Of a stretch of DNA of 64,000 bases, positions 141-54,959 are shown piece by piece. The position numbers and the translations under genes are program-made. Location: the NCBI GenBank assembly GCA_963757355.1, contig CAVWRG010000003.1, positions 2,465,550-2,529,549 on the forward strand, read 5' to 3'. Under the pieces are notes generated by a model. It was not told the DNA's origin and ran no database searches. It saw only the letters and a program-made list of their open reading frames with translations. Position 1 is the stretch's first letter. Each line of letters opens with the position of its first letter. This DNA is from an uncultured Acidobacteriota bacterium. Lineage in GTDB: Bacteria; Acidobacteriota; Vicinamibacteria; Vicinamibacterales; CAVVIG01.

Positions 141-1514
<1,374 letters not shown>

Positions 1515-1521
1515 ACAATCT

Positions 1522-1585
1522 GAAAAAGGGGCCGTACCCCTTTTTCGCGTCGGGCCGCCTGAAAAAGGGGTACGGCCCCTTTTTG
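1522..1585. repeat. Paired palindromic mini-element (arm GAAAAAGGGGCCGTACCCCTTTTTC 1522-1546; reverse-complement arm GAAAAAGGGGTACGGCCCCTTTTTG 1561-1585)
   Basis: Each arm is a hairpin (A5G4-CCGTA-C4T5). The arms are mutual reverse complements 14 nt apart. The element begins 8 nt after the hslU stop, so it also resembles a bidirectional intrinsic terminator. Related copies are at 41111, 44291, 51322 and 53296. Confidence 0.9.
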
Positions 1586-6029: not shown

Positions 6030-6086
6030 AATTGGTGAATTGGTCAATTGGTGAGTTGGTGAGTTCGTGAATTGGCGAGTTGCTGA
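6030..6086. repeat. One-armed tandem octamer array, TTGGTGAG family (7 units)
   Basis: AATTGGTG AATTGGTC AATTGGTG AGTTGGTG AGTTCGTG AATTGGCG AGTTGCTG. It runs from the stop of the carboxyltransferase gene to the GTG start of the amidase gene. Confidence 0.85.
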
Positions 6087-9880: not shown

Positions 9881-12800
9881 GGCTCGCCGCGCGCCTGCGC
9901 TCGGCGTTCCGCCATCGCGCGGTCCGCTATGTCGGTATCGCCGCGGCGACCACCGTCGTCGGACTGGCGGTCGTTGTCGTCGCGACGCTGACGATCGATC
10001 TCGGCCCGGCCGTCCGCGGACTGGCGGAGCGCGCCGGCTCGAAACGGCTCGAGCGCCCGCTGCACATCGGCCGCCTCGGCATTCACCTGCTCAGCGGCCG
10101 CGTCGTCGTCGACGATCTGTCGATCGAAGGAGTGCACGAGGGCGACCGGCCATTCTTCACGGCGAAGAAGATTGCGGTGTCGCTCGACTGGTCCACCGTC
10201 CTCAGGCGGAAGCCTGAATTCATCATCACATCGGTTGAGATGACCGACTGGCGCATGCTGGTCGAACGCTGGGGCGACGACAATCACAATTTTCCGAAGA
10301 TCAAAGGCGACGACACCAAGCCCGGCGGCCCGCCGAAATTCACCACCACCCTGAAATATCTCCGCGCATGGCGCGGCGAGTTCGCGTACGAAGATCACGA
10401 GGCGCCCTGGAGCGTCGATTGTCCGAATCTCGATCTCAGCATCGGAAACCTGCCGAACTACCACGGGCAGGCGTCGTTCAGCGGCGGCACCGTGAAGATC
10501 CAGGATCATCTGCCGATGTGGGCGAACATGAAGGCGAGCTTCGCCATCGATGGCGGCAAGATCCACCTCGATCGGATCGATCTGACGTCCGATGGCGCGG
10601 TGTCGTCGGCGTTTGGCGATGTGGACACCGGCCGCTGGCCGGAGATGCGCTACCAGGTGAAGTCGCAGGTGGATTTCGCTCGGATGCGGCAGATCTTCTT
10701 CACCGACGAATCGTGGAGGCTCGGAGGCACAGGCGATTTCACCGGCGTGTTCCATCTGTTCAAGGGCGGCCGCGATCTGAGCGGCACCTTCGCCAGCGAT
10801 CAGCTCGGCGTGAACGCGTACCAGTTCCCGGCACTCTACGGTTCGCTGCGGTGGACGCCCCATGCGTTCGATGTCTGGAACGCCGGCGCGCGGGCGTTCG
10901 GTGGCGACGCGAAGATCACATTCGCCATCAAGCCCCTGGGATCGAGCGTCCGTCCGGCGGCACGGTTCGAGGCGACCTACGCGCGTGCCGATCTGGCGGC
11001 CGTCAGCGATTTTTACGCGCTGCGCGGCACCCGATTCGCCGGCTCCGCCTCAGGCCACAACGTCTTGGAATGGACGATGGGGCGCTTCGCGGAGAAGCAC
11101 GACGAAGGCACGATCGTGGTGACGCCACCCGCAGGAATCGAGCCGATGACCGCGTCGCTCGCGGCGGCGCGGGCCGCCGATGCCCACCACACGCGCCACG
11201 TCTGGGGGCCCTTCGCGCCGCAACCGCTCGCCGCGCACCTGCCGATCGCCGGTGAGCTCACCTATCGCCTGAATCAGACGAGCGTGCAGCTCGACGGCGG
11301 GCGATTGGCCACCGAGCGCACGTACGTGGCCTTCGACGGTTCCACCGATTGGGGCGACCTTTCCAACATTGCGTTTCACGTAGTGAGCCGCGACTGGCAG
11401 GAAAGCGATCAGCTGCTGGCCGGCATCATCACCGACTTCGGATCGCCGACCGGCGTCGTCGCGTTCGGCGGACGCGGCGAGTTCGACGGCGTGATGACCG
11501 GCGCGTTCCGGCGGCCGCGGGTCGAGGGGGACTTCACCGGCGAGGACCTGCGCGCGTGGGACACGACCTGGGGAGACGGCGGCGGCCACATCATCGTCGA
11601 GCACAGCTACGTGACGGTGGCCGACAGCGTGATCCGGGCCAACGGCTCGGAGATTCGCGCCGATGGCCGGTTCTCGCTGGGCTATCCCCGCGAGGACGGG
11701 GGCGAAGAGATCAACGCGCGTTTCCGCGTGGTCCGGCGCGATCTCGACTCGCTGCGCCACGCCTTCCAGCTGGACGACTATCCGGTGTCTGGCCAGCTCA
11801 CGGGAGAGTTTCACCTGACGGGCGCGTATGAACGGCCGGTCGGCTTCGGCGGCATGACGATCGACAACGGCGTCGCATACGGCGAACCGTTTCAGAAGGC
11901 GACCGCGTCGCTGCGCTTCGATGGCACTGGCGTGCGGCTGGATGGCATGAACATCGCGAAAGAGGGCGGCAGCGTCACGGGCGCCGCGTTCGTCGGCTGG
12001 GACTCGACGTATTCGTTCAACGCCGACGGCAACCGCATGCCGGTCGAGAAGATCGCCGCGTTCAGCTACCCGCGCGCGCCGCTCTCGGGGCTCGCGGCGT
12101 TCACGGCGACGGGCAGCGGCACCTTCGACGCGCCGCGGTACGATGTGAAGTTCCGCGTCAACGATCTTTTCATCGCCGAGGAAGGTGTCGGCCAGGTGAC
12201 GGGATCGCTCGCGCTGCGCGGCAAGGAGCTGAGCGGCGATGTGGACGTCGCGTCTCCGCGCCTGGCGATCACCGGCACCGGCCGCATCGCGTTGACGCCG
12301 CACGGCGATTCGGAGCTGACGTTCCGATTTCATGACAGCTCGCTCGATCCATACGTCCGCCTGTTCGTGCCGAAGCTCTCGCCGTTCACGACAGCGGTCG
12401 CGAGCGGGTCGATCCGCATCGCCGGCGAGCTCGCCGACGTCGATCATCTGCTGGCCGATGCCACTGTCGATTCGCTCGACATGCGCCTGTTCGACTACGC
12501 GGTGAAGAACGCGACGCCGATCCGGTTCACGCTCGATCAGCGGCAGGTCAAGGTCGCGGATCTGCAGCTCGTCGGCGTCGATACGAAGCTCAGCGTGTCC
12601 GGCACCGTCGGCCTTCACGACCAGCGCATCGCGCTGAAGGCGGCGGGAGAGGCGAACCTCGGCATGCTGCAGGGCTTTTTCCGGGACGTCCGCGCTTCGG
12701 GCCACGCGGAACTGACCGCATCGGTCGACGGACCGCTCCACCAGCCGCTGTTCTCCGGCAGCGCGACGATCACGGACGGCCGCATCCGCCATTTCTCGCT

Positions 12801-20767: not shown

Positions 20768-20844
20768 GGGATTCGTGATTCGGGCTTCGGGATTCGCGGC
20801 GCCCCGAATCCCGATCGAATCCCCAATCCCGAATCCCGAATCCC
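20768..20844. repeat. Inverted heptamer hairpin, GGGATTC family
   Basis: GGGATTCGTGATTCGGGCTTCGGGATTCGCGG | CCCCGAATCCCGATCGAATCCCCAATCCCGAATCCCGAATCCC. It fills the spacer between the regulator and kinase genes. Confidence 0.85.
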
Positions 20845-23653: not shown

Positions 23654-23803
23654 CAATTGGTAAATTGGTGAGTTGATAAATTGCTAAAAGCTAAAAGATG
23701 GGGCGATTTTGCGTCCGTAGCCAAATTGCGATCGAATCAGTTTCGACAGCTCGTCAGCATTCCCGGCATTCACCAACTTACCAACTCACCAACTCACCAA
23801 CTC
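23654..23803. repeat. Inverted octamer arrays, TTGGTGAG family, with ~70-nt central loop
   Basis: Left arm CAATTGGTAAATTGGTGAGTTGATAAATTGCTAAAAGCTAAAAG (23654-23697). Right arm ATTCACCAACTTACCAACTCACCAACTCACCAACTC (23768-23803). Confidence 0.8.
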
Positions 23804-26950: not shown

Positions 26951-27100
26951 GGAACTCGGGACGGGATTTGGGATTTGGGATTAGGGATTCGATTGGGATT
27001 CGGGGTTCGCGATTCGGCGGAACCCCAAATTCCAAACCCAGATCGCAATTCCCAAATCGCGAATCACAACGCGAGTCCCAAATCCCGAATCCCGAATCCC
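26951..27100. repeat. Large inverted heptamer/octamer hairpin, GGGATTC/GGGATTT family (~150 bp)
   Basis: Left arm GGGATTTGGGATTTGGGATTAGGGATTCGATTGGGATTCGGGGTTCGCGATTCGG. Right arm CCCCAAATTCCAAACCC...GTCCCAAATCCCGAATCCCGAATCCC. It starts 1 nt after the nrdJ stop. Confidence 0.85.
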
Positions 27101-37841: not shown

Positions 37842-38008
37842 TTGGGAAGTTGGTGAGTTAGTGAGTTGGTGAGTTGGTGAGTTGGCGAGTTGGTAAGTTG
37901 GTAAGTTGGTAAGTTGCTAAGTTGGTGAGTTGACGGCTTGGCGAGTTGGCGATTTGGTGCATTGAATTCGCCAAATCACCAATTCACCAATTTACCAATT
38001 CACCAACT
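37842..38008. repeat. Largest inverted octamer array, TTGGTGAG family (~15 units forward, ~5 units reverse complement)
   Basis: GGAAGTTGGTGAGTTAGTGAGTTGGTGAGTTGGTGAGTTGGCGAGTTGGTAAGTTGGTAAGTTGGTAAGTTGCTAAGTTGGTGAGTTGACGGCTTGGCGAGTTGGCGATTTGGTG - CATTGAATT - CGCCAAATCACCAATTCACCAATTTACCAATTCACCAACTT. It occupies the entire spacer between convergent stops. Confidence 0.9.
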
Positions 38009-39037
38009 TCAGTATGGCAGCTCGTTATTTTCGGCCGCGGCGCGTTCGGTGCTGCGTGTCAGGCGTGACGGCGCCCAGGCGGAGCCGCTCTGCCAGCCGG
38101 TGCGCGGGCGGTCGCCCGATGCGTCCGTCGCCGACGGCAAGAGGCGGTTGGCCCACTCCATCACCAGCGCGACACCCTCAGGCATGAGGGCATTGGCGAC
38201 GACCGCGAGCTTCGCCGGCCAGCTGATCACGAGCTCGGCATCGCCGTGGCGGCAGGCGTCGACCACCTGCCCAGCCGCACGCGCGGCGTCGATCGAGGCG
38301 ATGGGCATCGAATCGGAAATCGCAAACCAGGTGAACTCGTCGCGATAACGCCCCTTGAACCACGCGTTGAACGGCGAGCCGGTGCGCATCATGCCCGGGC
38401 AGACGGTCGTCACGTGAATGCCGTCCTTTGCGAGCTCGCTGCGGACTGAGTCGGACAATCCGGTGAGCGCAAACTTGCTCGCGCAGTACGGCGTCAGGTG
38501 CGGCACGCCGATTTTGCCTCCGATCGAAGAGATGTTGACGATCCGTCCGCCGCCGCGCCGGCGCATCTCCGGGATCGCCGTCAGCATCGTGTGCAGCGGC
38601 CCCCAGAAGTGCACCGCCATCGCTTCTTCGAAGTCGCCTCGCTGCATGTGATCGAGCGGGCCGACCTTGATCACGCCCGCGTTGTTGATCAGCACGTCGA
38701 TGCGTCCTGTGCGCGCCACGACGCCGCGGACCAGCTGTGTGGCCTCCTCGCGATCGCCGACGTTGCAGACGACGATCGCCGCCTCGATGCCGCGGCCGGC
38801 GAGATCATCGCGCGCCCGTTGCAGCTCGGCTTCATCACGGGCGGCGAGCGTGACGCGCGCCCCTTCGCGGCCGAACTCGCGAGCGAGCAGCAGCCCGAGC
38901 CCGCGCGAGCCGCCGGTGATCACAACTGAGCAGCCGTCGAACGTCATCGATCGCACGGCGCGAATCTGGCGTGCAATCAGCGCCGCGCCGATCGTCGCGA
39001 CGCCAGCTGCCAGCGCCGTTTGCTGTGTCTTGTTCAT
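38009..39037 (-). CDS. SDR family oxidoreductase with N-terminal membrane anchor
   Basis: ATG at 39037 gives MNKTQQTALAAGVATIGAALIA... followed by VVITGGSRGLGLLLA, NNAG and YCASKFAL. The track ORF extends spuriously to 39829. Confidence 0.85.
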   Translation of the reverse strand: MNKTQQTALAAGVATIGAALIARQIRAVRSMTFDGCSVVITGGSRGLGLLLAREFGREGARVTLAARDEAELQRARDDLAGRGIEAAIVVCNVGDREEATQLVRGVVARTGRIDVLINNAGVIKVGPLDHMQRGDFEEAMAVHFWGPLHTMLTAIPEMRRRGGGRIVNISSIGGKIGVPHLTPYCASKFALTGLSDSVRSELAKDGIHVTTVCPGMMRTGSPFNAWFKGRYRDEFTWFAISDSMPIASIDAARAAGQVVDACRHGDAELVISWPAKLAVVANALMPEGVALVMEWANRLLPSATDASGDRPRTGWQSGSAWAPSRLTRSTERAAAENNELPY

Positions 39038-39160: not shown

Positions 39161-41797
39161 ATGCCGGACGCTTCGGCACCCACACTGACTGGTCTGGCAG
39201 CCCGCTCCACGCGCGACGGCGCTCTCGACGCCGCCCTCGAGCGGCTGGCGGGTGATCGGCTGCACAGAGACGGGTCTCCGCCCGACGTTCGGAGACCCGT
39301 CCCCCCGGAGACCCGTTCCTCTCTCGACCGACCCGACACGCCCGACCTGCACGTCACCGCAGTCCGCCGCCTCCCGGCCGTTCCCGCGCAGTTCGCACCG
39401 TTTCCAGAGGCGCTCGATCCGCGGCTGCGGCGTGCGCTCGCATCGCGCGGCATCGCGCAGGCCTACACGCATCAGGCCGAAGCGATCGAGCACGCGCTTG
39501 CCGGCCGCCATACCGTCGTCGTCACGCCGACGGCATCCGGCAAGACGCTCTGCTACAACGCGCCGGTCTTGCACGCGATCCTGCAAGATCCAGCGGCGCG
39601 CGCGCTCTATCTGTTTCCGACGAAAGCGCTCGCGCAGGATCAGCTCGCCGAGCTGCAGGCGATGTGCGAAACGCTGTCGGGGCTGCCGTCGGGGACAGGT
39701 CTCGGCGAGGATGAACGAGACCTGTCCCCGATCAGCGTCTTCACCTACGACGGCGACACGCCGCAGGACGCGCGGCGCACGATTCGGGGACGCGCGCATC
39801 TCGTCCTCAGCAATCCGGACATGGTGCACTCAGGCATCCTGCCGCACCACCCGCGATGGGCAAAGCTCTTCGAGAATCTCCGTTACGTGATCATCGACGA
39901 GCTGCACGCCTACCGAGGCGTCTTCGGCAGTCACCTGTGCAACGTGCTGCGGCGGCTGCGCCGCATCTGCCGGCATTACGGATCGAATCCGGTGTTCCTC
40001 TGTTCGTCGGCGACCATCGCGAACCCGCAGGAGCTGGCGGAACGGCTCACCGAGCAGCCATTCGAGTTGGTCGATCAAAGCGGCGCACCGCGCGGCGAGA
40101 AGTTCTTCGTGTTCGTCAACCCGCCGGTGGTGAATCAGCCGCTGGGCATCCGCCGGTCGTATCTGAGTGAGACGCGCCGCATTGCCGCCGAATTCCTGAA
40201 GCGGAATCTGCAGCTGATCGTCTTCGCGCAGAGCCGTCTCGCCACCGAGATTCTGACGACGTACCTGAAGGACGACTTCGAAGGGATGCCTGGCGCACCC
40301 GAGCGGATCCGTGGGTATCGCGGCGGATATCTGCCGAATCGGCGCCGCGAGATCGAAAAGGGCTTGCGGGAAGGTGCGGTGCGCGCGGTGGTCTCGACCA
40401 ACGCGCTCGAGCTCGGCATCGACATCGGTGCGCTCGACGTCAGCGTCATGGCCGGCTACCCGGGGACGATCGCGGGGACGTGGCAGCGCGCCGGGCGCGC
40501 CGGACGCCGCGCCAGCCGATCGGCGGCAGTGATGGTCGCCAGCAGCGCACCGCTCGATCAGTTCGTCGTCCGCAACCCGTCGTACTTCTTCGACGCGTCG
40601 CCCGAGCGCGCGCTGATCGATCCTGACAACCTCCATATCCTGGTCGATCACATCAAGTGCGCCGCCTTCGAGCTGCCGTTCACGACGAGCGAGGCGTTCG
40701 GCCGGCACGACCTCCAGGAGATTCTGTCGCTGCTGGCGGAGCAGGGGCTGGTGCATCGCGCCGGCGGCAGCGCCGACCTCGACGCGCCGGAGGTCGAAAC
40801 GCAGTGGACGTGGACGAACGAATCGTACCCGGCCGACGCGGTCAGCCTGCGGTCGGTGTCCTCAGACAATTTCGTGATTGTCGATACGACAGAGGAGACG
40901 TGCGTCATCGGAGAGACCGATTTCACGAGCGGCCCCGCCACGCTCCATCCCAAAGCGATCTACATCGTCGAAGGGAAGCTGTATCAGGTGGAGAGGCTCG
41001 ATTTCGAAGGACGCAAGGCGTTCGTGCGCGCGATCGAGTGTGACTACTACACGACCGCGATCACGTACACGCGGGTGACGATCCTCGATACGTTTGCGCA
41101 AGGCGCGGAGGAACAGGGGTACGGCCCCTTTTCGGGTGAGTCCGGCGACGAAAAGGGGCCGTACCCCTTTTCCTCGCACGGCGAGGTCCACGTCGTGTCG
41201 CGCGTCGTCGGGTTCAAGAAGATCAAGTTCTATACGAACGAAAATGTCGGATCCGGCGAGCTCGACCTGCCCGAGCAGCAGATGCACACGACCGCGTACT
41301 GGCTGACCATTCCAGCGTCGGTGATGAGGCTGCTGCCGTGCGCCTCGGACGATCGGCGCGACGGCGTCGTTGGCTTGGCGTTCGCGATGCGCCAGGTCGC
41401 GCAGCTGCTGTTGATGTGCGATGGGCACGACATCGGCATCTCAATTTCCGGATTCGGGATTGGGGATGCGGGATTGGGGCCGAAAGCGGGCCAGTCGAAT
41501 CCCGCATCCCCAATCCCCAATCCCGACGGCGTTCAGATCTTTGTGTACGACAATTACCCGGGTGGGATTGGTTTCAGCGAGCCGTTGTTCCGGATGCACG
41601 ATGAGTTGCTCGCCGCGACGCGCCGTCTCATCGCCGAGTGCGAGTGCGAGAGCGGTTGCCCGGGATGCGTCGGCCCCGTCGGCAATACCGGACCGCTCGC
41701 GAAAGTGGTGGCGCTGCGGATTCTCGATCTGTTGACGGGCGCGACGGCGCTCTCCACGCCGGCGCACACGGTCGATCCAGAGGTTCAACCTTTTTGA
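39161..41797 (+). CDS. DEAD/DEAH-box helicase with C-terminal DUF1998 zinc domain (MrfA/YprA-like)
   Basis: Motif I VVVTPTASGKTLCY, motif II IIDELHAY, SAT-like SSATIAN, and QRAGRAGRR. The C-terminus carries CECESGCPGCV. Two repeat insertions lie in frame. Confidence 0.9.
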   Translation: MPDASAPTLTGLAARSTRDGALDAALERLAGDRLHRDGSPPDVRRPVPPETRSSLDRPDTPDLHVTAVRRLPAVPAQFAPFPEALDPRLRRALASRGIAQAYTHQAEAIEHALAGRHTVVVTPTASGKTLCYNAPVLHAILQDPAARALYLFPTKALAQDQLAELQAMCETLSGLPSGTGLGEDERDLSPISVFTYDGDTPQDARRTIRGRAHLVLSNPDMVHSGILPHHPRWAKLFENLRYVIIDELHAYRGVFGSHLCNVLRRLRRICRHYGSNPVFLCSSATIANPQELAERLTEQPFELVDQSGAPRGEKFFVFVNPPVVNQPLGIRRSYLSETRRIAAEFLKRNLQLIVFAQSRLATEILTTYLKDDFEGMPGAPERIRGYRGGYLPNRRREIEKGLREGAVRAVVSTNALELGIDIGALDVSVMAGYPGTIAGTWQRAGRAGRRASRSAAVMVASSAPLDQFVVRNPSYFFDASPERALIDPDNLHILVDHIKCAAFELPFTTSEAFGRHDLQEILSLLAEQGLVHRAGGSADLDAPEVETQWTWTNESYPADAVSLRSVSSDNFVIVDTTEETCVIGETDFTSGPATLHPKAIYIVEGKLYQVERLDFEGRKAFVRAIECDYYTTAITYTRVTILDTFAQGAEEQGYGPFSGESGDEKGPYPFSSHGEVHVVSRVVGFKKIKFYTNENVGSGELDLPEQQMHTTAYWLTIPASVMRLLPCASDDRRDGVVGLAFAMRQVAQLLLMCDGHDIGISISGFGIGDAGLGPKAGQSNPASPIPNPDGVQIFVYDNYPGGIGFSEPLFRMHDELLAATRRLIAECECESGCPGCVGPVGNTGPLAKVVALRILDLLTGATALSTPAHTVDPEVQPF
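41111..41173. repeat. Paired palindromic mini-element inside the helicase CDS (arms GGGGTACGGCCCC then GGGGCCGTACCCC)
   Basis: GAACAGGGGTACGGCCCCTTTTC - 16 nt - GAAAAGGGGCCGTACCCCTTTTCC, 63 nt in all. It is translated as EQGYGPFSGESGDEKGPYPFS. Confidence 0.85.
41448..41525. repeat. Inverted heptamer hairpin (GGGATTS family) inside the helicase CDS
   Basis: A perfect 20-bp inverted repeat, GGGATTGGGGATGCGGGATT (41456-41475) and AATCCCGCATCCCCAATCCC (41498-41517). The 78-nt block stays in frame. Confidence 0.9.
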
Positions 41798-43083
41798 GCG
41801 CGCTCTCCGACCGCCTGCGTGGCATCATCGGCGCGCCGCCGCCTGGCGCCGCGGGGACCGGATCCCAAGTCCCGTGGAGCGGATCCCAAATCCCGGCCGA
41901 ATCCCAAATCCCGATCGAATCCCGAATCCCAAATCCCGAATCCCGAGATCTCTCCTGCCTGGCCGGCGAATGGCGCGGTGGCTGTTTCGTCGTGGAGCGG
42001 CGATACGACCGTGGCGTCTGCTATGGCCACGAGCCCGTCGGGGCGCTCTGGAGCCGCCTGGCAGCAGCCGCAGACGAGGCGCCGCTTGTCGCCGGCGGTG
42101 CGCCGGCGCGGCTGCCGTTCGTGTTCTTCGATTTGGAAACCACCGGTCTGAGCGGCGGCGCCGGCACTCACGCGTTTCTGGTGGGCTGCGCCTCGTTCGA
42201 CGAAGAAGGCGCGTTCGTCACGCGGCAATTCCTGCTCACGCGCTTCACCGACGAGAAGCCGCTGCTCGCCGCGGTGGCCGCCGAGCTCGCCCGGGCGGGC
42301 GCGTTGGTCAGCTTCAACGGCAAGTCGTTCGACGCGCCGGTGCTGGAGACGCGCTACTTGTATCACCGGCTGCCATGGGCCGCAGGGCAGCTGCCGCACA
42401 TGGACGTTCTGCACCCGGCACGGCGCTTCTGGCGCGACGAGCAGGAGATGGCGAGCTGTTCGCTGGTGTCGCTCGAGCGTCAGATCCTCGGGGCGCGCCG
42501 CATCGGCGACGTCCCGGGATTCGAGATTCCTGCGCGTTACTTTCAGTTCATTCGGAGTGGCGAGGCGCGCCCGCTGGCGGCCGTGCTCGAGCACAACCGG
42601 CTCGATTTGTTGTCGCTCGCCGGGCTGACCGCGCGCCTGCTGCATCTCATCCGCCGGGGTCCTGGCGCCGCGAAGGACGCGCGCGAGGCGTTGGCGCTCG
42701 GACGGGTGTACCTGCGTGCCGGGCTCGAGGTGCGCGCGTGCGACGCGTTCCAACAGGCGGCCGACCGATCGAGCGCGCACAGCGCGGTCAGAATCGAGTC
42801 GCTGCGCGCGCTGGCGCTGGCCTGGCGCCGCGCGCGGCAGCACGACCGCGCGGCAGCCTGCTGGAGCGCGCTGCTCGACGCGCCCGCGTGTCCGCGCCAC
42901 GTCGCACGTGAGGCGACCGACGCGCTCGCGATTCATCACGAGCATCGCGTCCGCGATCTCGCCGCGGCGAAAGGCTTTGCATTACGAAGTCTGGAATCCG
43001 GCGTGCATCCCGCCAGTCACGCGGCGGTGAGGCATCGTCTGGCACGGATCGAGCGGAAGATGAGCTCGCGTTTGCTGCTGTAG
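41794..43083 (+). CDS. DEDDh-type 3'-5' exonuclease with TPR-like C-terminus (MrfB/YprB-like)
   Basis: The TTG start overlaps the helicase stop (TTGA) and gives (M)SALSDRLRGII. Exo motifs are FFDLETTGL, FNGKSFDAPVLETRY and LEHNRLDLLSLAGL, with a helical repeat tail. The start is uncertain. Confidence 0.75.
   Translation: MSALSDRLRGIIGAPPPGAAGTGSQVPWSGSQIPAESQIPIESRIPNPESRDLSCLAGEWRGGCFVVERRYDRGVCYGHEPVGALWSRLAAAADEAPLVAGGAPARLPFVFFDLETTGLSGGAGTHAFLVGCASFDEEGAFVTRQFLLTRFTDEKPLLAAVAAELARAGALVSFNGKSFDAPVLETRYLYHRLPWAAGQLPHMDVLHPARRFWRDEQEMASCSLVSLERQILGARRIGDVPGFEIPARYFQFIRSGEARPLAAVLEHNRLDLLSLAGLTARLLHLIRRGPGAAKDAREALALGRVYLRAGLEVRACDAFQQAADRSSAHSAVRIESLRALALAWRRARQHDRAAACWSALLDAPACPRHVAREATDALAIHHEHRVRDLAAAKGFALRSLESGVHPASHAAVRHRLARIERKMSSRLLL
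41860..41946. repeat. One-armed heptamer array (GAATCCC/AAATCCC units) inside the exonuclease CDS
   Basis: GGATCCCAAGTCCC...GGATCCCAAATCCCGGCCGAATCCCAAATCCCGATCGAATCCCGAATCCCAAATCCCGAATCCCGAG, translated as GSQVPWSGSQIPAESQIPIESRIPNPESR. Confidence 0.85.
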
Positions 43084-43198
43084 CCGGGTCCAGAAGGACC
43101 CGGCCTACAATCGGAGGCCGTAGTCGCGTCCAAAGGACCCGCCCTGCAATCGGAGGCCGTAGCCGGATCCCACAGGACCCGGTTTTCAACCGGGCGGC
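43080..43198. repeat. Three tandem ~40-bp REP-like units (GTAG-hairpin-CCTAC)
   Basis: GTAGCCGGGTCCAGAAGGACCCGGCCTACAATCGGAGGCC / GTAGTCGCGTCCAAAGGACCCGCCCTGCAATCGGAGGCC / GTAGCCGGATCCCACAGGACCCGGTTTTCAACCGGGCGGC. The first GTAG contains the exonuclease TAG stop. Confidence 0.85.
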
Positions 43199-43519: not shown

Positions 43520-43554
43520 GTAGGAGCCGGCCTATGTGCCGGCCCGTACTCTAC
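43520..43554. repeat. REP-like hairpin (GTAGGAGCCGGCC-TATGT-GCCGGCCCGTACTCTAC)
   Basis: GTAG...CTAC termini with a GCCGGC stem. The terminal CTAC supplies the TAG stop of the minus-strand aldo/keto reductase gene. Confidence 0.6.
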
Positions 43555-44555
43555 GGCGTCGCGTTCGGCGCGCGGTCCCACCGATGGCTCCGCAGCGCTT
43601 CCTTCAACCGGGGTGGGAGAGGCGCCGCATCGCTGACGGCCATGTTGCGTTCGACGTGCCCGGTCCGGCGCATACCGGGAATCGTGGTGCTGACGGCCGG
43701 GTTCGCCAGGATGAATCGCAGCGCGATCTCGGCCAGATTCATCCCCTCCGGCACGAGCGGCTCGAGCCGCTCGACACGCGCGAGCGTGGCCGCCAGGTGG
43801 CCGGGGTTGAAATAGACGTTGCGCCAATCGCCTTCCGGCCAGCGTGATTCCGCGGTCAACGTGCCTGTGAGGCTGCCTTCATCGAAGGGCACCCGCGCGA
43901 TGACGGCGATGCCGTGCTGCTGACAATAGGGGAGCAGCGTATCCTCCGCCGACTGATCGAAGATGTTGTAGACCACCTGCACGCTGTCGATCAGGCCGGT
44001 GTCGAGCGCCCGCAGGACGTTTTCCGGCTCCCACCGGTTGACGCTGATCCCGAAACCGCGGATCAGCTTTTCGCGTTTCAGTGTCTCGACCGCCCGCTGC
44101 CAGCCGCGATCCGCGGCCCAGGCGTCGCTCCAGACGTGAAACTGTTGCAGGTCGATCGCCTCCACGCCGAGGTTCGCGAGGCTCTTCTCCGTGTACTCGC
44201 GGATGTGATCGGCGGGATAGGTGTCGCGGACGTCGTATTCCGCCCGCCCCGGCCATTTCATGTTCTTCGGCGGGATCTTGGTGGCGACGACAACGGGCCG
44301 TATCCCTTTTTCGCCGGCATCGCTCGGAAAAGGGGTACGGCCCCTTTTTCGGAGCGCCTGCCCGAGCAGCGTCTCGCTCTTGCCTGCGCCGTAGGCCCAC
44401 GCCGTGTCGAAGAAGGTGCAGCCGAGGGTCAGCGCGCGATCCAGCGCCTGCAGCGACTCCTCATCGTTGGAGCCGGTCCAGCCGCCCATGCCCCACAGGC
44501 CATAGCCGACTTCAGAAACCTGCCAGCCCGCTCGGCCGAATGTCCGGTAGCGCAT
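43551..44555 (-). CDS. Aldo/keto reductase
   Basis: MRYRTFGRAGWQVSEVGYGLWGMGGW...FFDTAWAYGAGKSE...VVATKIPP...IGISV...AIARVPFDEGSLTG. It contains an in-frame repeat insertion. Confidence 0.9.
   Translation of the reverse strand: MRYRTFGRAGWQVSEVGYGLWGMGGWTGSNDEESLQALDRALTLGCTFFDTAWAYGAGKSETLLGQALRKRGRTPFPSDAGEKGIRPVVVATKIPPKNMKWPGRAEYDVRDTYPADHIREYTEKSLANLGVEAIDLQQFHVWSDAWAADRGWQRAVETLKREKLIRGFGISVNRWEPENVLRALDTGLIDSVQVVYNIFDQSAEDTLLPYCQQHGIAVIARVPFDEGSLTGTLTAESRWPEGDWRNVYFNPGHLAATLARVERLEPLVPEGMNLAEIALRFILANPAVSTTIPGMRRTGHVERNMAVSDAAPLPPRLKEALRSHRWDRAPNATP
44291..44350. repeat. Paired palindromic mini-element inside the aldo/keto reductase CDS (one arm degenerate)
   Basis: CAACGGGCCGTATCCCTTTTTC - 14 nt - GAAAAGGGGTACGGCCCCTTTTTC, 60 nt in all. 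It reads on the minus strand as RKRGRTPFPSDAGEKGIRPV. Confidence 0.85.
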
Positions 44556-44561
44556 AGGACT

Positions 44562-44655
44562 CGAGGCTCAACTCGCACGCTGGCGATCAGCGTCGGTCGA
44601 GTGCGTCGCTTCGTTGAGCGTTATTTCGTTGAGCGTTGAGAGTTGCTTGTTGGAA
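44562..44655. repeat. Short heptamer array (CGTTGAG units) with weak inverted partner (CTCAAC)
   Basis: ...TTCGTTGAGCGTTATTTCGTTGAGCGTTGAGAGTTGCTTGTTGG with upstream GGCTCAACTCGC, in the spacer between the rho stop and the reductase start. Confidence 0.45.
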
Positions 44656-46554: not shown

Positions 46555-46641
46555 GGGATTTGTGATTCGTGATTGGGATTCGGCGGGATTCGTCTCGAAT
46601 CCGACCGGCTGCGAATCCCAAATCCCGAATCCCGAATCCCC
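46555..46641. repeat. Inverted heptamer hairpin, GGGATTC family
   Basis: GGGATTTGTGATTCGTGATTGGGATTCGGCGGGATTCGT | CGAATCCGACCGGCTGCGAATCCCAAATCCCGAATCCCGAATCCC. It fills the spacer between the engB start and the lon stop. Confidence 0.85.
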
Positions 46642-49047: not shown

Positions 49048-49121
49048 ATTTGGTGAGTTGGCAATTTGGTAAATGGGTAAATTGAACTTACCAATTTACC
49101 AACTTATCCATTTACCAATTT
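49048..49121. repeat. Inverted octamer hairpin, TTGGTGAG/TTGGTAAA family
   Basis: ATTTGGTGAGTTGGCAATTTGGTAAATGGGTAAATTG | ACTTACCAATTTACCAACTTATCCATTTACCAATTTC. It spans the whole lon-clpX spacer. Confidence 0.85.
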
Positions 49122-51321: not shown

Positions 51322-51345
51322 GAAAAGGGGCCGTACCCCTTTTCC
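51322..51345. terminator. Single arm of the palindromic mini-element (GAAAAGGGGCCGTACCCCTTTTCC) downstream of tig
   Basis: A4G4-CCGTA-C4T4 hairpin 27 nt after the tig stop on the minus strand. It has a U-run on either strand, giving a bidirectional intrinsic-terminator shape. Confidence 0.45.
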
Positions 51346-51371: not shown

Positions 51372-52673
51372 TCAATCGGTGAAGGTGGCCTTGCTCATTA
51401 CGAAGTCGACCGCTTTTTCGCGGCGCAAGCCCGATCGCACCCGGGACAGCCCGCCCTCTTTCTCGAGCCCGGCGCGCACGGCCGCCGGCGCCCGGCCCGT
51501 CCGTGCGGCGAAGCGCTCGATCTCCTGCTCGACCTCTTCGTCAGTGGCGTCGAGGTGCTCGTGCCGCGAGAGCTCGTCGAGCACCAGCGCACTCGCGACC
51601 GCTTCGCGCGCGACCTCGCGCTGGCTCTCCCGGAACGCGTTCCAGTCGATGCCGGCCTGCCGCGGATCGATGTTCTGATCGATCAGGCGCCGCGCAAAAT
51701 CCTCGATCCGCCGATCGATCTCGCGTTCGATGAGCGACGCAGGCACCTCGAAGGGCACGCGGGTCGCCAGCTGCTTCATCAGCTCCGCGCGGACGTCGCG
51801 CTCGGCCGCATGCCGCGCTTCGTGCTCGAGATCCTCACGCACCCGCGCGCGCAGGGCCTCGAGTGTTTCGAACTCGCCGAGATCTTTGGCGAGCTCATCG
51901 TCGAGCGCCGGCAGCACGCGACGCTTCAGGCTCTTGACGTGGACCGTGTACGTCACGTCCGTGCCGGCCAGCTCGGTGATCGTGTAGTCGGAGGGATAGT
52001 GCAGCGTGAACGTCTTGGTGGCATCCGGCTCCAGGCCGAGCAGCTGCTCGTCGAATCCGGGCGGATTCGCTTTCGCGCCCAGCTCCACCGACACGTCGGC
52101 GTGTGTGTCGGCGCCTGCGTCCTCGGCTGCCGTGCCGTCGGGCGGCGGTGTCGCGGCGTGGCGCTCCAGGTCGAGCACGACGGTGTCGCCGTGATCGACG
52201 CCGCGTCCCTCGACAGGCTCGAAGCGGGCCGCGCGCTCGCGCAGCCGCTCCATCGCGAGATCGACCGCCTCGTCGTCCACGCGCGTCGATGCGCGCTTCA
52301 ACGACACCGTCGCGTAATCGCCCGGTTCGAACGGCGGCAGGGTGTCGAATGTCGCGGTGAAGGTGAGCGGCTGACCTTCCTCGACGTTTACGTCCCGAAT
52401 ATCCGGCGTGTCGACCGGTTCGACGCCGCGCTCCCGCAGCGCATCGTCCATCGCGCGCGGAATCAGGTCGTGGACGACGTCGTGCAGGATCTGGTCCTTG
52501 AAGCGCTGCTTGATCACGCGCGCGGGCGCTTTCCCCGGGCGAAATCCCGGCACGCGCGCCTTGCGCGAATAGTCGCGGGCGATGCGGTCGATCTCGGCGC
52601 TGACCACATCTGTGGGAATTTCGACGCGCACGTTCTTGCGCGTCTCGTTGACGTCGACGAACTCGGTTTTCAT
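51372..52673 (-). CDS. tig: Trigger factor
   Basis: 433 aa. N-terminal ...RKARVPGFRPGKAPARVIKQRF is the ribosome-binding GFRPGK signature, in tig-clpP-clpX-lon synteny. Confidence 0.95.
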   Translation of the reverse strand: MKTEFVDVNETRKNVRVEIPTDVVSAEIDRIARDYSRKARVPGFRPGKAPARVIKQRFKDQILHDVVHDLIPRAMDDALRERGVEPVDTPDIRDVNVEEGQPLTFTATFDTLPPFEPGDYATVSLKRASTRVDDEAVDLAMERLRERAARFEPVEGRGVDHGDTVVLDLERHAATPPPDGTAAEDAGADTHADVSVELGAKANPPGFDEQLLGLEPDATKTFTLHYPSDYTITELAGTDVTYTVHVKSLKRRVLPALDDELAKDLGEFETLEALRARVREDLEHEARHAAERDVRAELMKQLATRVPFEVPASLIEREIDRRIEDFARRLIDQNIDPRQAGIDWNAFRESQREVAREAVASALVLDELSRHEHLDATDEEVEQEIERFAARTGRAPAAVRAGLEKEGGLSRVRSGLRREKAVDFVMSKATFTD

Positions 52674-52698
52674 GCGATTTTCATGGAGTGAAAACGAG

Positions 52699-52816
52699 AT
52701 TTGGTGATCTGGTGATTTGGTGACTTGGCGATTGATGACCTGGCGAATGGGATGTCAGTGCAGTCACTAACACCCTCAATTCACCAACTCTCCAACTCAC
52801 CAACTCGCCAATTTTA
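52699..52816. repeat. Inverted octamer hairpin, TTGGTGAY family
   Basis: ATTTGGTGATCTGGTGATTTGGTGACTTGGCGATTGATGACCTGGCGAATGG - 25-nt loop - TCAATTCACCAACTCTCCAACTCACCAACTCGCCAATTTT. It lies between tRNA-Leu and the tig start. Confidence 0.85.
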
Positions 52817-53114: not shown

Positions 53115-53297
53115 ATGATTCCGTGCCCGACGACCGGACGGCCGCTGCGCGTCGCCACGATCGAAGCGGAGGCTGCGGCCATCTGCCCCTCGTGTGTCAG
53201 CCGGGCGCGCGGCGGGTTCGTCTCCTTCGACGGAGACTTGCGCATGGCGTATGCCTGCCCGCACTGTCGTCAGCTGGTCTGGCTGGCGGGAGTATAG
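53115..53297 (+). CDS. Possible small zinc-ribbon protein (60 aa; longer forms from 53004/53025 possible)
   Basis: MIPCPTTGRPLRVATIEAEAAAICPSCVSRARGGFVSFDGDLRMAYACPHCRQLVWLAGV. It has CP..., CPSC and CPHC motifs and GC3-rich codons. Weakly similar in layout to the small ORF at 27118. Confidence 0.35.
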   Translation: MIPCPTTGRPLRVATIEAEAAAICPSCVSRARGGFVSFDGDLRMAYACPHCRQLVWLAGV

Positions 53298-53357
53298 AAA
53301 AGGGGCCGTACCCCTTTTTCAGGTGCGCCCAAGAAAAAGGGGTACAGCCCCTTTTAC
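53296..53357. repeat. Paired palindromic mini-element between convergent genes
   Basis: AGAAAAGGGGCCGTACCCCTTTTTC - 12 nt - GAAAAAGGGGTACAGCCCCTTTTAC. It overlaps the stop codons of the small ORF (+) and the methylase (-). Confidence 0.85.
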
Positions 53358-54337
53358 GAGCTCAGCGTTCTCGGCGTCAGATTCGAGATCAGGAATTCGT
53401 CGACCGGGCCGCGGCCGGCCGCGTCGCTGTTCATCGCGCGACGCGCGGGGACGCGCACCGCGCGAAGACCGGCGGCGCGCGCGTCGACGCTCGTGTCGTA
53501 GAGCGCCGCGATTTCGCGCGCGGTGGAATTGCTGACCAGCACGTAGCATCCGCGCCCCGCCAACTCGATCACCATCCGCTGCACGCGCGTCTGATCCTCG
53601 AGCGTGAAGCGCGGCGCCGTGTACGACGTGAAGTTCGCCGTCGCGCTCAGCGGTGCGTACGGTGGATCGACGTACAGAAAATCGCCCGCCTCCGCGATGC
53701 CGAGCGCCGCCTCGAACGATCCGCAGATCAATTGCACCCGCGCGCTCGCCAGCGCCGCCGCGACGCGAAACAATTTCGCGCGATCGCAGATCGATGGCCG
53801 CGCATAGCGTCCGGCCGGCACGTTGTACGCGCCGCTCGCATTGACCCGAAAGAGCCCGTTGAACCCGGTGCGATTGAGATAGATGAGCATCGCGGCGAGC
53901 TGCGGGGTGTACGCAATGCGGCCGTCCGCGCGCCGGCGCTGCTCGCGCTGCGGGTTGAATTGCGCATCCCGCACGGCGTAGTAGTGCGCGGAGCCGTCCG
54001 CGGCATGCGCCGCTGCGAGCTCGCCCAGCGCCCGCGACACTTGCTCCGGCTGGTCGCGCACGGTCTCGTAGCAGCCGATCAGATCCGGATTCGAGTCGAT
54101 GAGAATCGCGTCGTGATCCCGCAGCCGGCCCGCGCCCCACAAGTCGAAGAACACGGCGCCGCTGCCGAAGAACGGCTCGACGTACCGGCCGAACGCCTCG
54201 GGATAGAAGCGGCGCAGCTGCGGCAGGAGCTGTCGCTTGCCGCCCGCCCACTTGAGCAACGGACCTGCTTGATTGCCGGGCGACGATTGGTGACTTGGTG
54301 CCCCGGTGACTTGGCGAATGACGCCGCTCTTCATCAT
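53354..54337 (-). CDS. dam: DNA adenine methyltransferase (Dam-like, D12 class N6-MTase)
   Basis: LLKWAGGKRQLLPQL...EPFFGSGAVFF (FxGxG SAM motif)...FLYVDPPY (DPPY catalytic motif). The ~25-aa N-terminal extension is encoded by repeat units, so the start is uncertain. Confidence 0.9.
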   Translation of the reverse strand: MMKSGVIRQVTGAPSHQSSPGNQAGPLLKWAGGKRQLLPQLRRFYPEAFGRYVEPFFGSGAVFFDLWGAGRLRDHDAILIDSNPDLIGCYETVRDQPEQVSRALGELAAAHAADGSAHYYAVRDAQFNPQREQRRRADGRIAYTPQLAAMLIYLNRTGFNGLFRVNASGAYNVPAGRYARPSICDRAKLFRVAAALASARVQLICGSFEAALGIAEAGDFLYVDPPYAPLSATANFTSYTAPRFTLEDQTRVQRMVIELAGRGCYVLVSNSTAREIAALYDTSVDARAAGLRAVRVPARRAMNSDAAGRGPVDEFLISNLTPRTLSS

Positions 54338-54382
54338 GTCGTCGAATTTACCAACTCACCAACTCACCAACTCACCAATTTC
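54284..54382. repeat. Inverted octamer hairpin, TTGGTGAC/TTGGTGAG family, straddling the methylase start codon
   Basis: Left arm CGATTGGTGACTTGGTGCCCCGGTGACTTGGCGAATG (in the CDS). The loop carries the CATCAT start codons (54332-54337). Right arm GAATTTACCAACTCACCAACTCACCAACTCACCAATTTC. Confidence 0.85.
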
Positions 54383-54864: not shown

Positions 54865-54959
54865 CTCGCCAATTGGCGAGTTGGCGAGTTGGAGAGTTGG
54901 CGAGTTGGCGAGTTGAAATCACCAATTCACCAATTCACCAATTCACCAATTCACCGAAT
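54865..54959. repeat. Inverted octamer hairpin, TTGGCGAG / CACCAATT family
   Basis: GCTCGCCAATTGGCGAGTTGGCGAGTTGGAGAGTTGGCGAGTTGGCGAGTTG | AAATCACCAATTCACCAATTCACCAATTCACCAATTCACCGAAT. It includes the perfect 16-bp palindrome CTCGCCAATTGGCGAG. Confidence 0.9.

Follow-up and report, generated by a model that had tools for sequence, protein, structure and literature searches.

A 63-nt palindromic segment lying in frame in the gene for a DNA-repair helicase of the MrfA/YprA family is, with a probability of about 80%, a REP/RPE-like dispersed palindromic repeat that is tolerated in a permissive loop of mrfA and undergoes recurrent turnover there. The segment was found in the window, a 64,000-nt stretch of DNA from an uncultured member of the Vicinamibacterales (Acidobacteriota), and is a doublet of a short repeat with REP-like anatomy. 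Its unit of ~23 nt is itself a small hairpin, and two units are paired in opposite orientation, ~39 nt apart from start to start. The family is spread through Vicinamibacteria genomes, for the most part at 3' gene ends. This is a new lineage and a new sequence family for a behavior known from Rickettsia and other bacteria. The features of the window are collected in Table 1.

Table 1. Helicase gene, palindromes and repeat units located in the window.
Feature	Position	Strand	Details
MrfA/YprA-family DNA-repair helicase, 878 aa, intact	39161..41797	+	Pfam DEAD, Helicase_C, WHD_HRQ1, MZB
Full doublet in helicase ORF	41108..41175	+	27-nt arms, 96% complementary; 14 nt between arms
Y unit	41111..41133	+	GAACAGGGGTACGGCCCCTTTTC; loop TACGG; encodes E-Q-G-Y-G-P-F-S
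Spacer	41134..41149	+	GGGTGAGTCCGGCGAC; 16 nt; encodes G-E-S-G-D
P unit	41150..41172	+	GAAAAGGGGCCGTACCCCTTTTC; loop CCGTA; encodes E-K-G-P-Y-P-F-S
Second in-frame palindrome, MZB-domain loop	41447..41526	+	29-nt arms, 93% complementary
Third in-frame palindrome, RecA1 variable loop	39689..39731	+	16-nt arms, 100% complementary; 11-nt centre
Doublet in frame in aldo/keto reductase ORF 43554..44567(-)	44289..44351	-	reads RKRGRTPFPSDAGEKGIRPVVV; one unit degenerate
Intergenic doublet	1522..1585		starts 8 nt past TGA stop of gene 141..1514(+)
Single intergenic unit	51322..51344		~28 nt downstream of stop of gene 51372..52673(-)
Doublet at 3' end of gene 53354..54337(-)	53297..53356		last bases overlap its TAA stop

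The inverted-repeat search returned a near-perfect inverted repeat whose 27-nt arms (41108-41134 and 41149-41175) are 96% complementary around a 14-nt centre. It is composed of two 23-nt units in opposite orientation, GAAAAGGGG-TACGG/CCGTA-CCCCTTTTC. The stem of each unit is itself a perfect palindrome, so that orientation can be read only from the 5-nt loop, and the unit is free of stops in all six frames. The P unit of the window is the exact family consensus and the Y unit departs from it by one mismatch (GAACAG for GAAAAG), while the spacer between them varies between loci and between orthologs. The insert occupies codons 651 to 671 of the helicase as EQGYGPFSGESGDEKGPYPFS, with position 41111 as codon 651, and contains neither a stop nor a frameshift. 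Sequence and ORF thus confirm the initial annotation, which had described 63 nt, or 21 codons, carrying both arms in frame within an unbroken 878-aa ORF. The tryptic peptides predicted from the sequence across the insert include ...AEEQGYGPFSGESGDEK and GPYPFSSHGEVHVVSR.

The helicase gene that hosts the repeat is unbroken, and purifying selection acts on it. Identity between the helicase of the window and that of L052 is 0.97, 0.98 and 0.86 at codon positions 1, 2 and 3, as expected under such selection, and with the frame free of stops and frameshifts the possibility of an mrfA pseudogene was rejected. Residues 75-857 align to PDB 6znp (E = 2.8e-220), and the conserved columns C827, C829, C833 and C836 are present. 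The hallmarks of MrfA/YprA (DUF1998) proteins were all found: an SF2 core, a winged-helix domain, an OB/CON region, a C-terminal Zn-binding MZB domain and a downstream mrfB exonuclease, the gene after the helicase at orthologous loci carrying an RNase_H_2 (PF13482) domain.

Within this protein the insert maps to a surface loop, where by alignment and modeling it would add ~20 residues at the tip of a β-hairpin in the CON element, a three-stranded antiparallel sheet that comprises residues 557-630 of Bacillus subtilis MrfA according to the published domain limits. The placement comes from the HMMER alignment to PDB 6ZNP and those domain limits. An AlphaFold2 model based on 45 close homologs was of low quality (mean pLDDT 51, pTM 0.43) and was used only for its strand-coil-strand pattern, in which residues 647-671 are predicted as coil with pLDDT below 50, flanked by strands at 637-646 and 673-680. 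B. subtilis MrfA is 16 residues shorter at the insert. Thus, both structural placement and ortholog comparison agree with the initial description of an insertion into the helicase: the segment falls in a low-confidence coil between two strands, and sequences that do without it exist.

The same unit occurs well beyond the helicase. The 13-mer GGGGTACGGCCCC has nine matches in the window with at most two mismatches, seven of them exact, against a mean of 1.5 in shuffled sequences, none of which reached nine, so chance does not explain the recurrence. An exact 19-mer core of the unit was found in at least 49 stretches, nearly all of them from Vicinamibacteria or Acidobacteriota MAGs. A sample of 558 kb of Vicinamibacteria DNA holds 93 units, arranged as 30 inverted pairs and 33 singles with no neighboring units in the same orientation, and the start-to-start spacing peaks at 36-40 nt, which covers most pairs. 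Three copies in the window (1522-1585, 51322-51344 and 53297-53356) lie 0-28 nt from stop codons, and ~7 of 57 sampled loci are clearly intragenic. Besides the helicase, in-frame copies were found in UvrA, PurL, SelA, Dxr, an AcrB-type pump and the aldo/keto reductase of the window, and Pfam domain matches flank the insert on both sides in each of these. A further query for host proteins with a 45-aa concatenated peptide gave three candidates and one meaningless match and was uninformative. Since the 23-mers are found between genes as well as in the reading frame of at least six further genes, the term "RPE-like behaviour" used in the initial annotation is a fair description.

The order of the two units in the helicase had also been described as reversed relative to the other paired loci. 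Within the window the difference is real, because arm order is invariant under a strand flip: the pairs at 1522-1585, 44289-44351 and 53297-53356 all place the unit with the CCGTA loop first, and the helicase pair places the unit with the TACGG loop first. The order is not unique, however. The 558-kb sample contains 21 pairs in the common order and nine in the helicase order, four of these nine being orthologs' copies of the same helicase site.

An artefact of assembly or sequencing, such as a long-read foldback, was considered as the origin of the palindrome. The window is apparently part of a 3.0-Mb contig, and L050, also on a long contig, has a likely frameshift in another palindrome of the helicase. 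Nevertheless, the same doublet stands at the same site and in the same frame in independent assemblies from other projects (L051, L056 and L057), and exact units occur in dozens of MAGs. An artefact was therefore rejected, its probability being negligible.

The constraint on the repeat appears to act on the nucleotides and not on the protein, as comparison of the orthologs suggests. In L051, L056 and L057 each arm departs from the 23-mers of the window at 0-2 positions and the spacers differ in sequence and length, and gene-wide four-fold third-position identity between these three and the window is only 0.49-0.63. The helicase gene has a GC3 of 0.82 and prefers GAG, GGC and TTC; the repeat keeps GAA, GGG and TTT. 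This fixed, non-preferred codon choice speaks against a protein-level functional motif, for instance a partner-binding loop, in which the palindromic DNA would be incidental to the 21 residues. Peptides of the EKGYGPFS...EKGPYPFS type do occur in the loop of 14 of the 120 close helicase orthologs compared, yet they are absent from most of these orthologs and from B. subtilis MrfA, the spacer is not conserved, and identical nucleotides are found in intergenic DNA and in unrelated proteins. A protein motif is thus highly improbable and was rejected on the recurrence of the same nucleotides elsewhere and its absence from most orthologs.

Constraint on nucleotides could also mean that the palindrome is kept for a role in cis, as an RNase III site, a ribosome pause, or a DNA cruciform or protein-binding site, with the peptide as a by-product. 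The 27-bp stem in the mrfA-mrfB message is indeed predicted to be very stable: the 86-nt region folds as RNA at −58 kcal/mol (z = −7.0), a stability equaled by none of 200 shuffles, and the DNA palindrome folds at −35 kcal/mol (z about −7). No known RNA family matched in Rfam, where microRNA precursor hairpins scored below threshold at 41111-41172 and 41446-41527. The conservation of the arms, non-preferred codons included, while spacers and synonymous sites diverged would suit a role in cis, as would the presence of palindromes in all three variable loops of the helicase. The second palindrome is built of GGGATTN / NAATCCC heptamers and encodes GFGIGDAGLG...NPASPIPNP, and the third encodes SGTGLGEDERDLSP. 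Against such a role, the element is not recognizable in the loop of 78 of the 120 orthologs; it is halved in the close relatives L050 and L052 and apparently decayed in P0003 and P0006 while the flanking frame stays intact; mutations in the arms are uncompensated, such as GAACAG in the window and TGCGG in L057; and the unit is also found in unrelated genes and intergenic DNA. Selection for a role in cis is therefore improbable as the reason for its presence.

The preferred reading, a tolerated dispersed repeat with turnover, is supported by the variety found at the loop. The 120 orthologs were screened for repeat-derived peptide motifs, of which 78 had none, and some loops are only 6-7 residues long. 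Across the whole set, the doublet is patchy; other orthologs have one unit left after deletion, a decayed remnant, a repeat of a second family or some other insert. L050, whose protein is 88-92% identical, retains the P unit alone, as a deletion of 39 nt between direct GGC repeats would leave it; L052 retains the Y unit alone, L053 has a remnant and a P unit, and the copies in P0003 and P0006 have a decayed appearance. A different inverted pair stands at the same codon in L054 and L055, among which P0059, a carrier of the helicase-doublet family, nests in the tree. This second family (GGGGTCGGGAGTC type) has shared spacers, and L054 holds two doublets with an identical spacer. Between the sisters L058 and L059 the difference lies in new palindromic inserts, present in both loops. 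One 75-nt palindrome inserted in loop 1 of L058 had no counterpart elsewhere in the sampled loci and was therefore not called a dispersed family. On these sequences the site is no single clean insertion but a loop in which several palindromic families have repeatedly been gained, replaced, deleted and left to decay.

All recognizable copies at the helicase loop are in one reading phase (EKG...), which is not obviously expected of independent random insertions. The common phase suggests that the target is a preferred one, that an element already present was converted, or that one old insertion has been kept up at the DNA level. A search for an empty site and a filled site that would form a clean pair with a target-site duplication gave none, and the flanks of the doublets hold no consistent target-site duplication; for the most part they extend the palindrome (GCG...CGC, TGCA...TGCA) and do not form clear direct repeats.

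A true insertion hot spot, with elements actively targeted to, for example, a pre-existing hairpin or a GAA/GAG-containing microhomology in the loop, can be put forward only tentatively; the survival of copies at tolerated sites would then explain the pattern only in part. In a quick neighbor-joining tree of close sequences that carries no support values, six or more distinct clades contain the doublet, and its phase is the same in all of them. The two families share the outermost 10 nt of the doublet (GAAAAGGGGT...ACCCCTTTTC) and the same codon position after TTC GCG, and in L058 a doublet of the second family replaced one arm of an older palindrome. Recognizable units were found only in the CON and MZB-domain loops, though other regions vary in length. 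Yet a single old insertion with many later losses and with conversion by genomic copies explains the data just as well, target-site duplications are absent from the flanks, and the RecA1 variable loop holds a different palindrome, so that tolerance alone may decide where palindromes survive. The broader form of this idea is likewise doubtful, if conceivable: that palindromes of several families repeatedly enter, in a fixed phase, variable loops that serve them as landing pads in MrfA and probably in many other Vicinamibacteria proteins, one family overwriting another through shared ends or hairpin targeting.

The element resembles REP sequences. It is an imperfect palindrome in the 20-40 nt range, present in many copies, frequently as inverted dimers, and mainly intergenic near 3' ends. 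The intragenic REP dimers of the two large super-families, tagged with GTAG or CGTC and known for example from Opitutus terrae (in uvrA), Thauera and Thioalkalivibrio (Di Nocera et al. 2013, BMC Genomics 14:522; PMC3733652), are likewise palindromes of 20-40 nt, often paired in opposite orientation and mostly intergenic near the 3' ends of genes, and a minority of them form dimers within ORFs that add 20-30 aa to the product, often in genes for replication and repair. The hosts described here include MrfA and UvrA, and some genes have more than one site, as in that system. The differences are that orientation is marked only by the 5-nt loop, that the phylum is Acidobacteriota (Vicinamibacteria), that several families recur in the same loops of one protein, and that there is no tag: the flanks of 78 units hold neither GTAG nor CGTC, only (G/A)A...T(C/T) extensions of the stem. 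A separate GTAG-tagged repeat is present in the window at 43081-43181.

RPEs are similarly palindromic repeats in frame in functional housekeeping genes, at the inferred protein surface (Ogata et al. 2000, 2002, summarized in PMC3733652 and PMC10969869), and the ORFs that carry the present element are also left intact. By their description in PMC10969869, RPEs are set apart as elements of ~100-150 bp, specific to Rickettsia, with a conserved peptide per family; the element described here is a 63-nt doublet of 23-nt units from a free-living soil lineage of Vicinamibacterales, outside that size class and genus. The initial annotation called in-frame palindromic elements established for Rickettsia, which is correct, but they are not confined there: in-frame REP dimers have been published well beyond Rickettsia, a good number of them in genes for replication and repair, uvrA among them (PMC3733652), and the kind of element is therefore already known. 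The initial annotation was further unaware of such a report for the lineage, and none was found for Vicinamibacteria.

Like REPINs and their RAYTs (Bertels and Rainey 2011), the doublets are inverted REP pairs at a fixed distance with long persistence and vertical sharing across related species. Unlike REPINs, their spacers differ at every locus as well as between orthologs, shared spacers being found only in the second family, and a REPIN that is copied as one block would not show such differences. Compared with MITEs, arms of 23-27 nt are present and the 63-nt insert is below the usual size of 70-300 bp. As for intrinsic terminators, the unit has a stem of four G-C and 4-5 A-T pairs, a loop of 5 nt and T4-5, and intergenic copies lie just past stops; a simple consensus terminator scan did not call the units. 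Pneumococcal SPRITEs and the paired Neisseria DUS and Haemophilus USS are terminator-like dispersed repeats or paired uptake sequences, and USS are tolerated in frame in variable parts of proteins. The units share with these a short GC stem between an A-run and a T-run and inverted pairing after stops. Unlike a terminator, the copy inside mrfA cannot be an efficient one if the gene is expressed.

The proposed course of events is as follows. A copy would have become fixed in mrfA because the unit has no stop in six frames, the inserted length is a multiple of three, and the copy landed at the tip of the CON hairpin, where length varies. In such a permissive loop an in-frame insertion would be translated as a Gly/Pro-rich, probably disordered extension of ~20 residues that does not disable the helicase, and the repeat would cost the protein little or nothing in selective terms. 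The near-identity of the arms across species would then stem from ongoing copying or gene conversion that draws on genomic copies, and not from selection on the peptide. Candidate agents of copying are a Y1/HUH transposase of the RAYT or TIRYT type or hairpin-mediated template switching. A tblastn search of 516 kb for a RAYT, a weak test with an E. coli query, gave nothing better than E = 0.46; class 3 TnpA-Y1 genes have been reported in Acidobacteria (PMC6006769).

These observations extend in-frame palindromic insertions to Vicinamibacteria, an abundant and poorly studied soil lineage of Acidobacteriota. In one conserved repair helicase, three or more loops owe much of their variation in length to such repeats, and the filled, halved, decayed and replaced sites form a natural series for the gain and loss of repeats in coding DNA. 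There are practical consequences as well. Gene callers may mis-start or truncate genes at these repeats: the gene calls of L050 lack ~100 residues of the aldo/keto reductase and the MZB domain of the helicase. Such loop inserts are also easily mistaken for lineage-specific protein motifs. If the landing-pad reading is true, the evolution of loop length in this lineage would depend largely on the insertion and decay of palindromes whose arms a DNA-level process keeps constant, and the system would parallel the RPEs of Rickettsia in a free-living lineage, with several families and with site specificity.

On the best-supported reading, the segment 41111-41173 belongs to a dispersed family of palindromic repeats resembling REPs and RPEs, and a permissive loop of the host protein tolerates it in frame. 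The segment consists of GAACAGGGGTACGGCCCCTTTTC then GGGTGAGTCCGGCGAC then GAAAAGGGGCCGTACCCCTTTTC(C) and lies within ORF 39161..41797(+), which encodes 878 aa. The initial annotation described a palindromic mini-element inserted here without breaking the frame, and the sequence, the inverted repeat and the intact frame are all confirmed. A repeat search finds 27-nt arms at 41108-41134 and 41149-41175, 96% complementary with 14 nt between them, and the 21 codons starting with codon 651 at 41111 read, as originally given, EQGYGPFSGESGDEKGPYPFS. Allowing up to two mismatches, the window holds nine copies of the 13-mer core, seven of them exact, against a mean of 1.5 in shuffles, none of which reached nine. 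The folding energy of the region is −58 kcal/mol for RNA and −35 kcal/mol for DNA (z ~ −7).

The repeat unit of about 23 nt has the form GAAAAGGGG-NNNNN-CCCCTTTTC. Because its stem is itself a palindrome, the two orientations are distinguishable only by the 5-nt loop: the CCGTA-loop form, P, reads EKGPYPFS, and the TACGG-loop form, Y, reads EKGYGPFS. By inspection, all six reading frames of the unit are free of stop codons. The sampled DNA (558 kb) comprises the matches listed in a 19-mer scan together with ortholog contigs, and its counts are not genome-wide; it holds 93 units, arranged as 30 pairs and 33 singles. All 30 pairs are inverted and none has the same orientation, their start-to-start spacing is sharply peaked at 36-40 nt, and their spacer sequences show no relation from locus to locus. 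The reversed arm order first reported for the helicase copy is correct within the window but not unique, since nine Y-then-P pairs accompany the commoner P-then-Y order (n = 21) in this sample; four of the nine represent the same helicase site in orthologs. In a scan of one genome per species, the exact 19-mer is present in at least 49 stretches, and the matches listed are nearly all in MAGs assigned to Vicinamibacteria or Acidobacteriota (gp6), which represent several species. Those helicase homologs that carry names are Vicinamibacterales.

The window's intergenic copies are sited at gene 3' ends, which is the distribution described for REPs (PMC3733652). The TAA stop of the minus-strand gene 53354..54337, at 53354-53356, overlaps the final bases of repeat unit CCCCTTTTA, and this element may supply the stop codon of that gene. 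Clearly intragenic positions account for about 7 of the 57 loci sampled, with units in frame in PurL (L019), an AcrB-type pump (L026), SelA (L030), Dxr (L031) and UvrA (L042). The EKG... frame predominates and the other two frames are present as well. Each intragenic insert has Pfam matches on both sides, and in the window's aldo/keto reductase the Aldo_ket_red match at residues 19-319 runs across the insert. In L050, a syntenic locus of a relative, this reductase is called from a start past the element, at 236 aa.

Palindromic and repeat features of the window in addition to the helicase doublet
Feature	Position	Details
Y/P doublet, intergenic	1522-1585	begins 8 nt past TGA stop
Y/P doublet, aldo/keto reductase	44289-44351	ORF 43554..44567(-); in frame, reads RKRGRTPFPSDAGEKGIRPVVV
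Y/P single unit, intergenic	51322-51344	~28 nt past a stop
Y/P doublet	53297-53356	overlaps TAA stop of minus-strand gene
Helicase RecA1-loop palindrome, in frame	39689-39731	16-nt perfect arms TCGGGGACAGGTCTCG...CGAGACCTGTCCCCGA; encodes SGTGLGEDERDLSP
Helicase MZB-loop palindrome, in frame	41447-41526	29-nt arms, 93% complementary; GGGATTN / NAATCCC heptamers
AATCCCN heptamer arrays	41858-41949, 20768-20844, 26963-27100, 46555-46640	often inverted
Three tandem GTAG-tagged hairpins	43081-43181	GTAGCCGGGTCCAGAAGGACCCGGCCTAC + 11-nt linker
8-nt unit arrays	6032-6088, 23655-23803, 37848-38011, 49085-49121, 52698-52811, 54350-54378, 54873-54955	TTGGTGAG + complement, CTCACCAA-like

Several other repeat classes share the window. 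For the AATCCCN heptamer arrays, 28 matches are counted where 0.1 would be expected. The mrfB-like ORF that follows the helicase gene contains the first array tabulated in its 5' part, where the array would be read as ...SQIPAESQIPIESRIPNPESR. The GTAG hairpins, which begin exactly at the TAG stop of this mrfB-like ORF, resemble a classical GTAG REP family and are separate from the Y/P element. The 8-nt arrays are abundant, reach 14 copies and commonly precede an array of opposite orientation.

The host ORF encodes a full-length MrfA/YprA repair helicase with DEAD, Helicase_C, WHD_HRQ1 and MZB domains, matching PDB 6znp over residues 75-857 (E = 2.8e-220), and in orthologous loci the next gene carries an MrfB-type RNase_H_2 domain. 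The gene is under purifying selection, with identities of 0.97, 0.98 and 0.86 at codon positions 1, 2 and 3 against the orthologous locus L052. The initial annotation proposed comparison with orthologs lacking the insert, and shorter loops do exist: B. subtilis MrfA has 16 fewer residues at the aligned site, and the F645-to-H673 segment ranges from 6 to 47 residues among 120 orthologs of 75-92% identity. The structure prediction it also proposed, an AF2 model poor overall, places residues 647-671 in a low-confidence coil flanked by strands 637-646 and 673-680. In B. subtilis MrfA the aligned site is at about residues 578-586, within the CON element (557-630), an elongated three-stranded antiparallel sheet joining the OB and MZB domains (PMC7797055). 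From this strand-coil-strand arrangement and alignment, the insert is predicted to lengthen a β-hairpin tip.

Ortholog DNA records the history of the doublet at this CON loop. The Y...P doublet recurs in an unchanged phase in L051, L056 and L057, where the 23-mers are exact or nearly so and the 13-17-nt spacers are unrelated. Among relatives sampled together with flanking DNA, L050 is the closest, and it keeps the P unit alone, at a junction compatible with the deletion of 39 nt between GGC direct repeats. In L052 the Y unit alone is left, L053 retains a remnant GAAAAGGAG, spacer and P unit, and the ortholog proteins P0003 and P0006 seem to hold decayed copies. The arms differ by 0-2 nt between orthologs whose four-fold third positions are just 0.49-0.63 identical, and the element keeps GAA, GGG and TTT codons though the gene GC3 is 0.82, which argues for a constraint or homogenisation acting on nucleotides and not on the peptide. 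The fixed phase at the CON loop, the near-identical arms across species and a spacing that stays constant while the spacer sequence varies freely would be compatible with a targeted or conversion-based process, or with a hairpin that acts in cis, although the ready loss or degradation of the element in close relatives speaks against the latter. No target-site duplication is evident in the flanks of the ortholog doublets, and a limited, weak search of 516 kb with one RAYT query found no Y1 transposase.

Other palindromes also occur at the CON loop. At the codon position of the Y...P doublet, following TTC GCG, L054 and L055 have another inverted pair with perfect arms, GAAAAGGGGTCGGGAGTCTTTTC...GAAAAGACTCCCGACCCCTTTTC, and this second family, whose doublet has its outermost 10 nt in common with the Y...P doublet, also occurs in L008, L020, L037 and L049, loci not fetched for the helicase. 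The L054 helicase gene contains two second-family doublets, at 11883-11944 (CON loop) and 12234-12297 (MZB loop), with the identical spacer GGACCCGGCACCCGCG (SDPAPA), suggesting that in this family the whole doublet is copied as a unit. In a quick neighbour-joining tree with loops masked and without support values, the Y/P doublet occurs in at least six separate clades, and one Y/P carrier, P0059, is nested among second-family carriers. The sisters L058 and L059, which share 88% identity, differ at both the CON and the MZB loop; in the MZB loop of L058 a second-family doublet stands in place of one arm of an older heptamer palindrome, and its CON loop holds a unique 75-nt palindromic insert. 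MZB-loop peptides like GFG...NPESQIPNP appear patchily, in 28 of 120 orthologs, and the RecA1-loop 14-mer is, in orthologs, nearly confined to that loop, where it is sometimes repeated in tandem. Motifs like GGGACGGGTCTCC are also found in the helicase N-terminal extension (39267-39319). The orthologous helicase in L050 (10001-12553, MFD05513.bin.2.57) is called as 850 aa without the MZB domain, its frame shifting within the MZB-loop heptamer palindrome (...GLGRLHASRIPNPKS), either through a real frameshift at the repeat or through a homopolymer error of long-read assembly. The best-supported reading includes recurrent gain, replacement, halving and decay of the dispersed repeat at the permissive helicase loop.

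Rickettsia RPEs are the classic case of in-frame palindromic repeats. Di Nocera et al. 2013 described GTAG and CGTC REPs inside genes in several phyla; most are dimers that encode 20-30 aa, and many lie in replication and repair genes, uvrA among them (PMC3733652). Those REPs are tagged, whereas the flanks of the Y/P unit carry neither tag. For Vicinamibacteria, full-text literature searches brought up no account of such elements, and Rfam holds no family matching the element. Given these precedents, the phenomenon is rated as known, and the lineage and the sequence family as new. The feature that goes beyond the precedents is the recurrence of several families at fixed loops of one protein.
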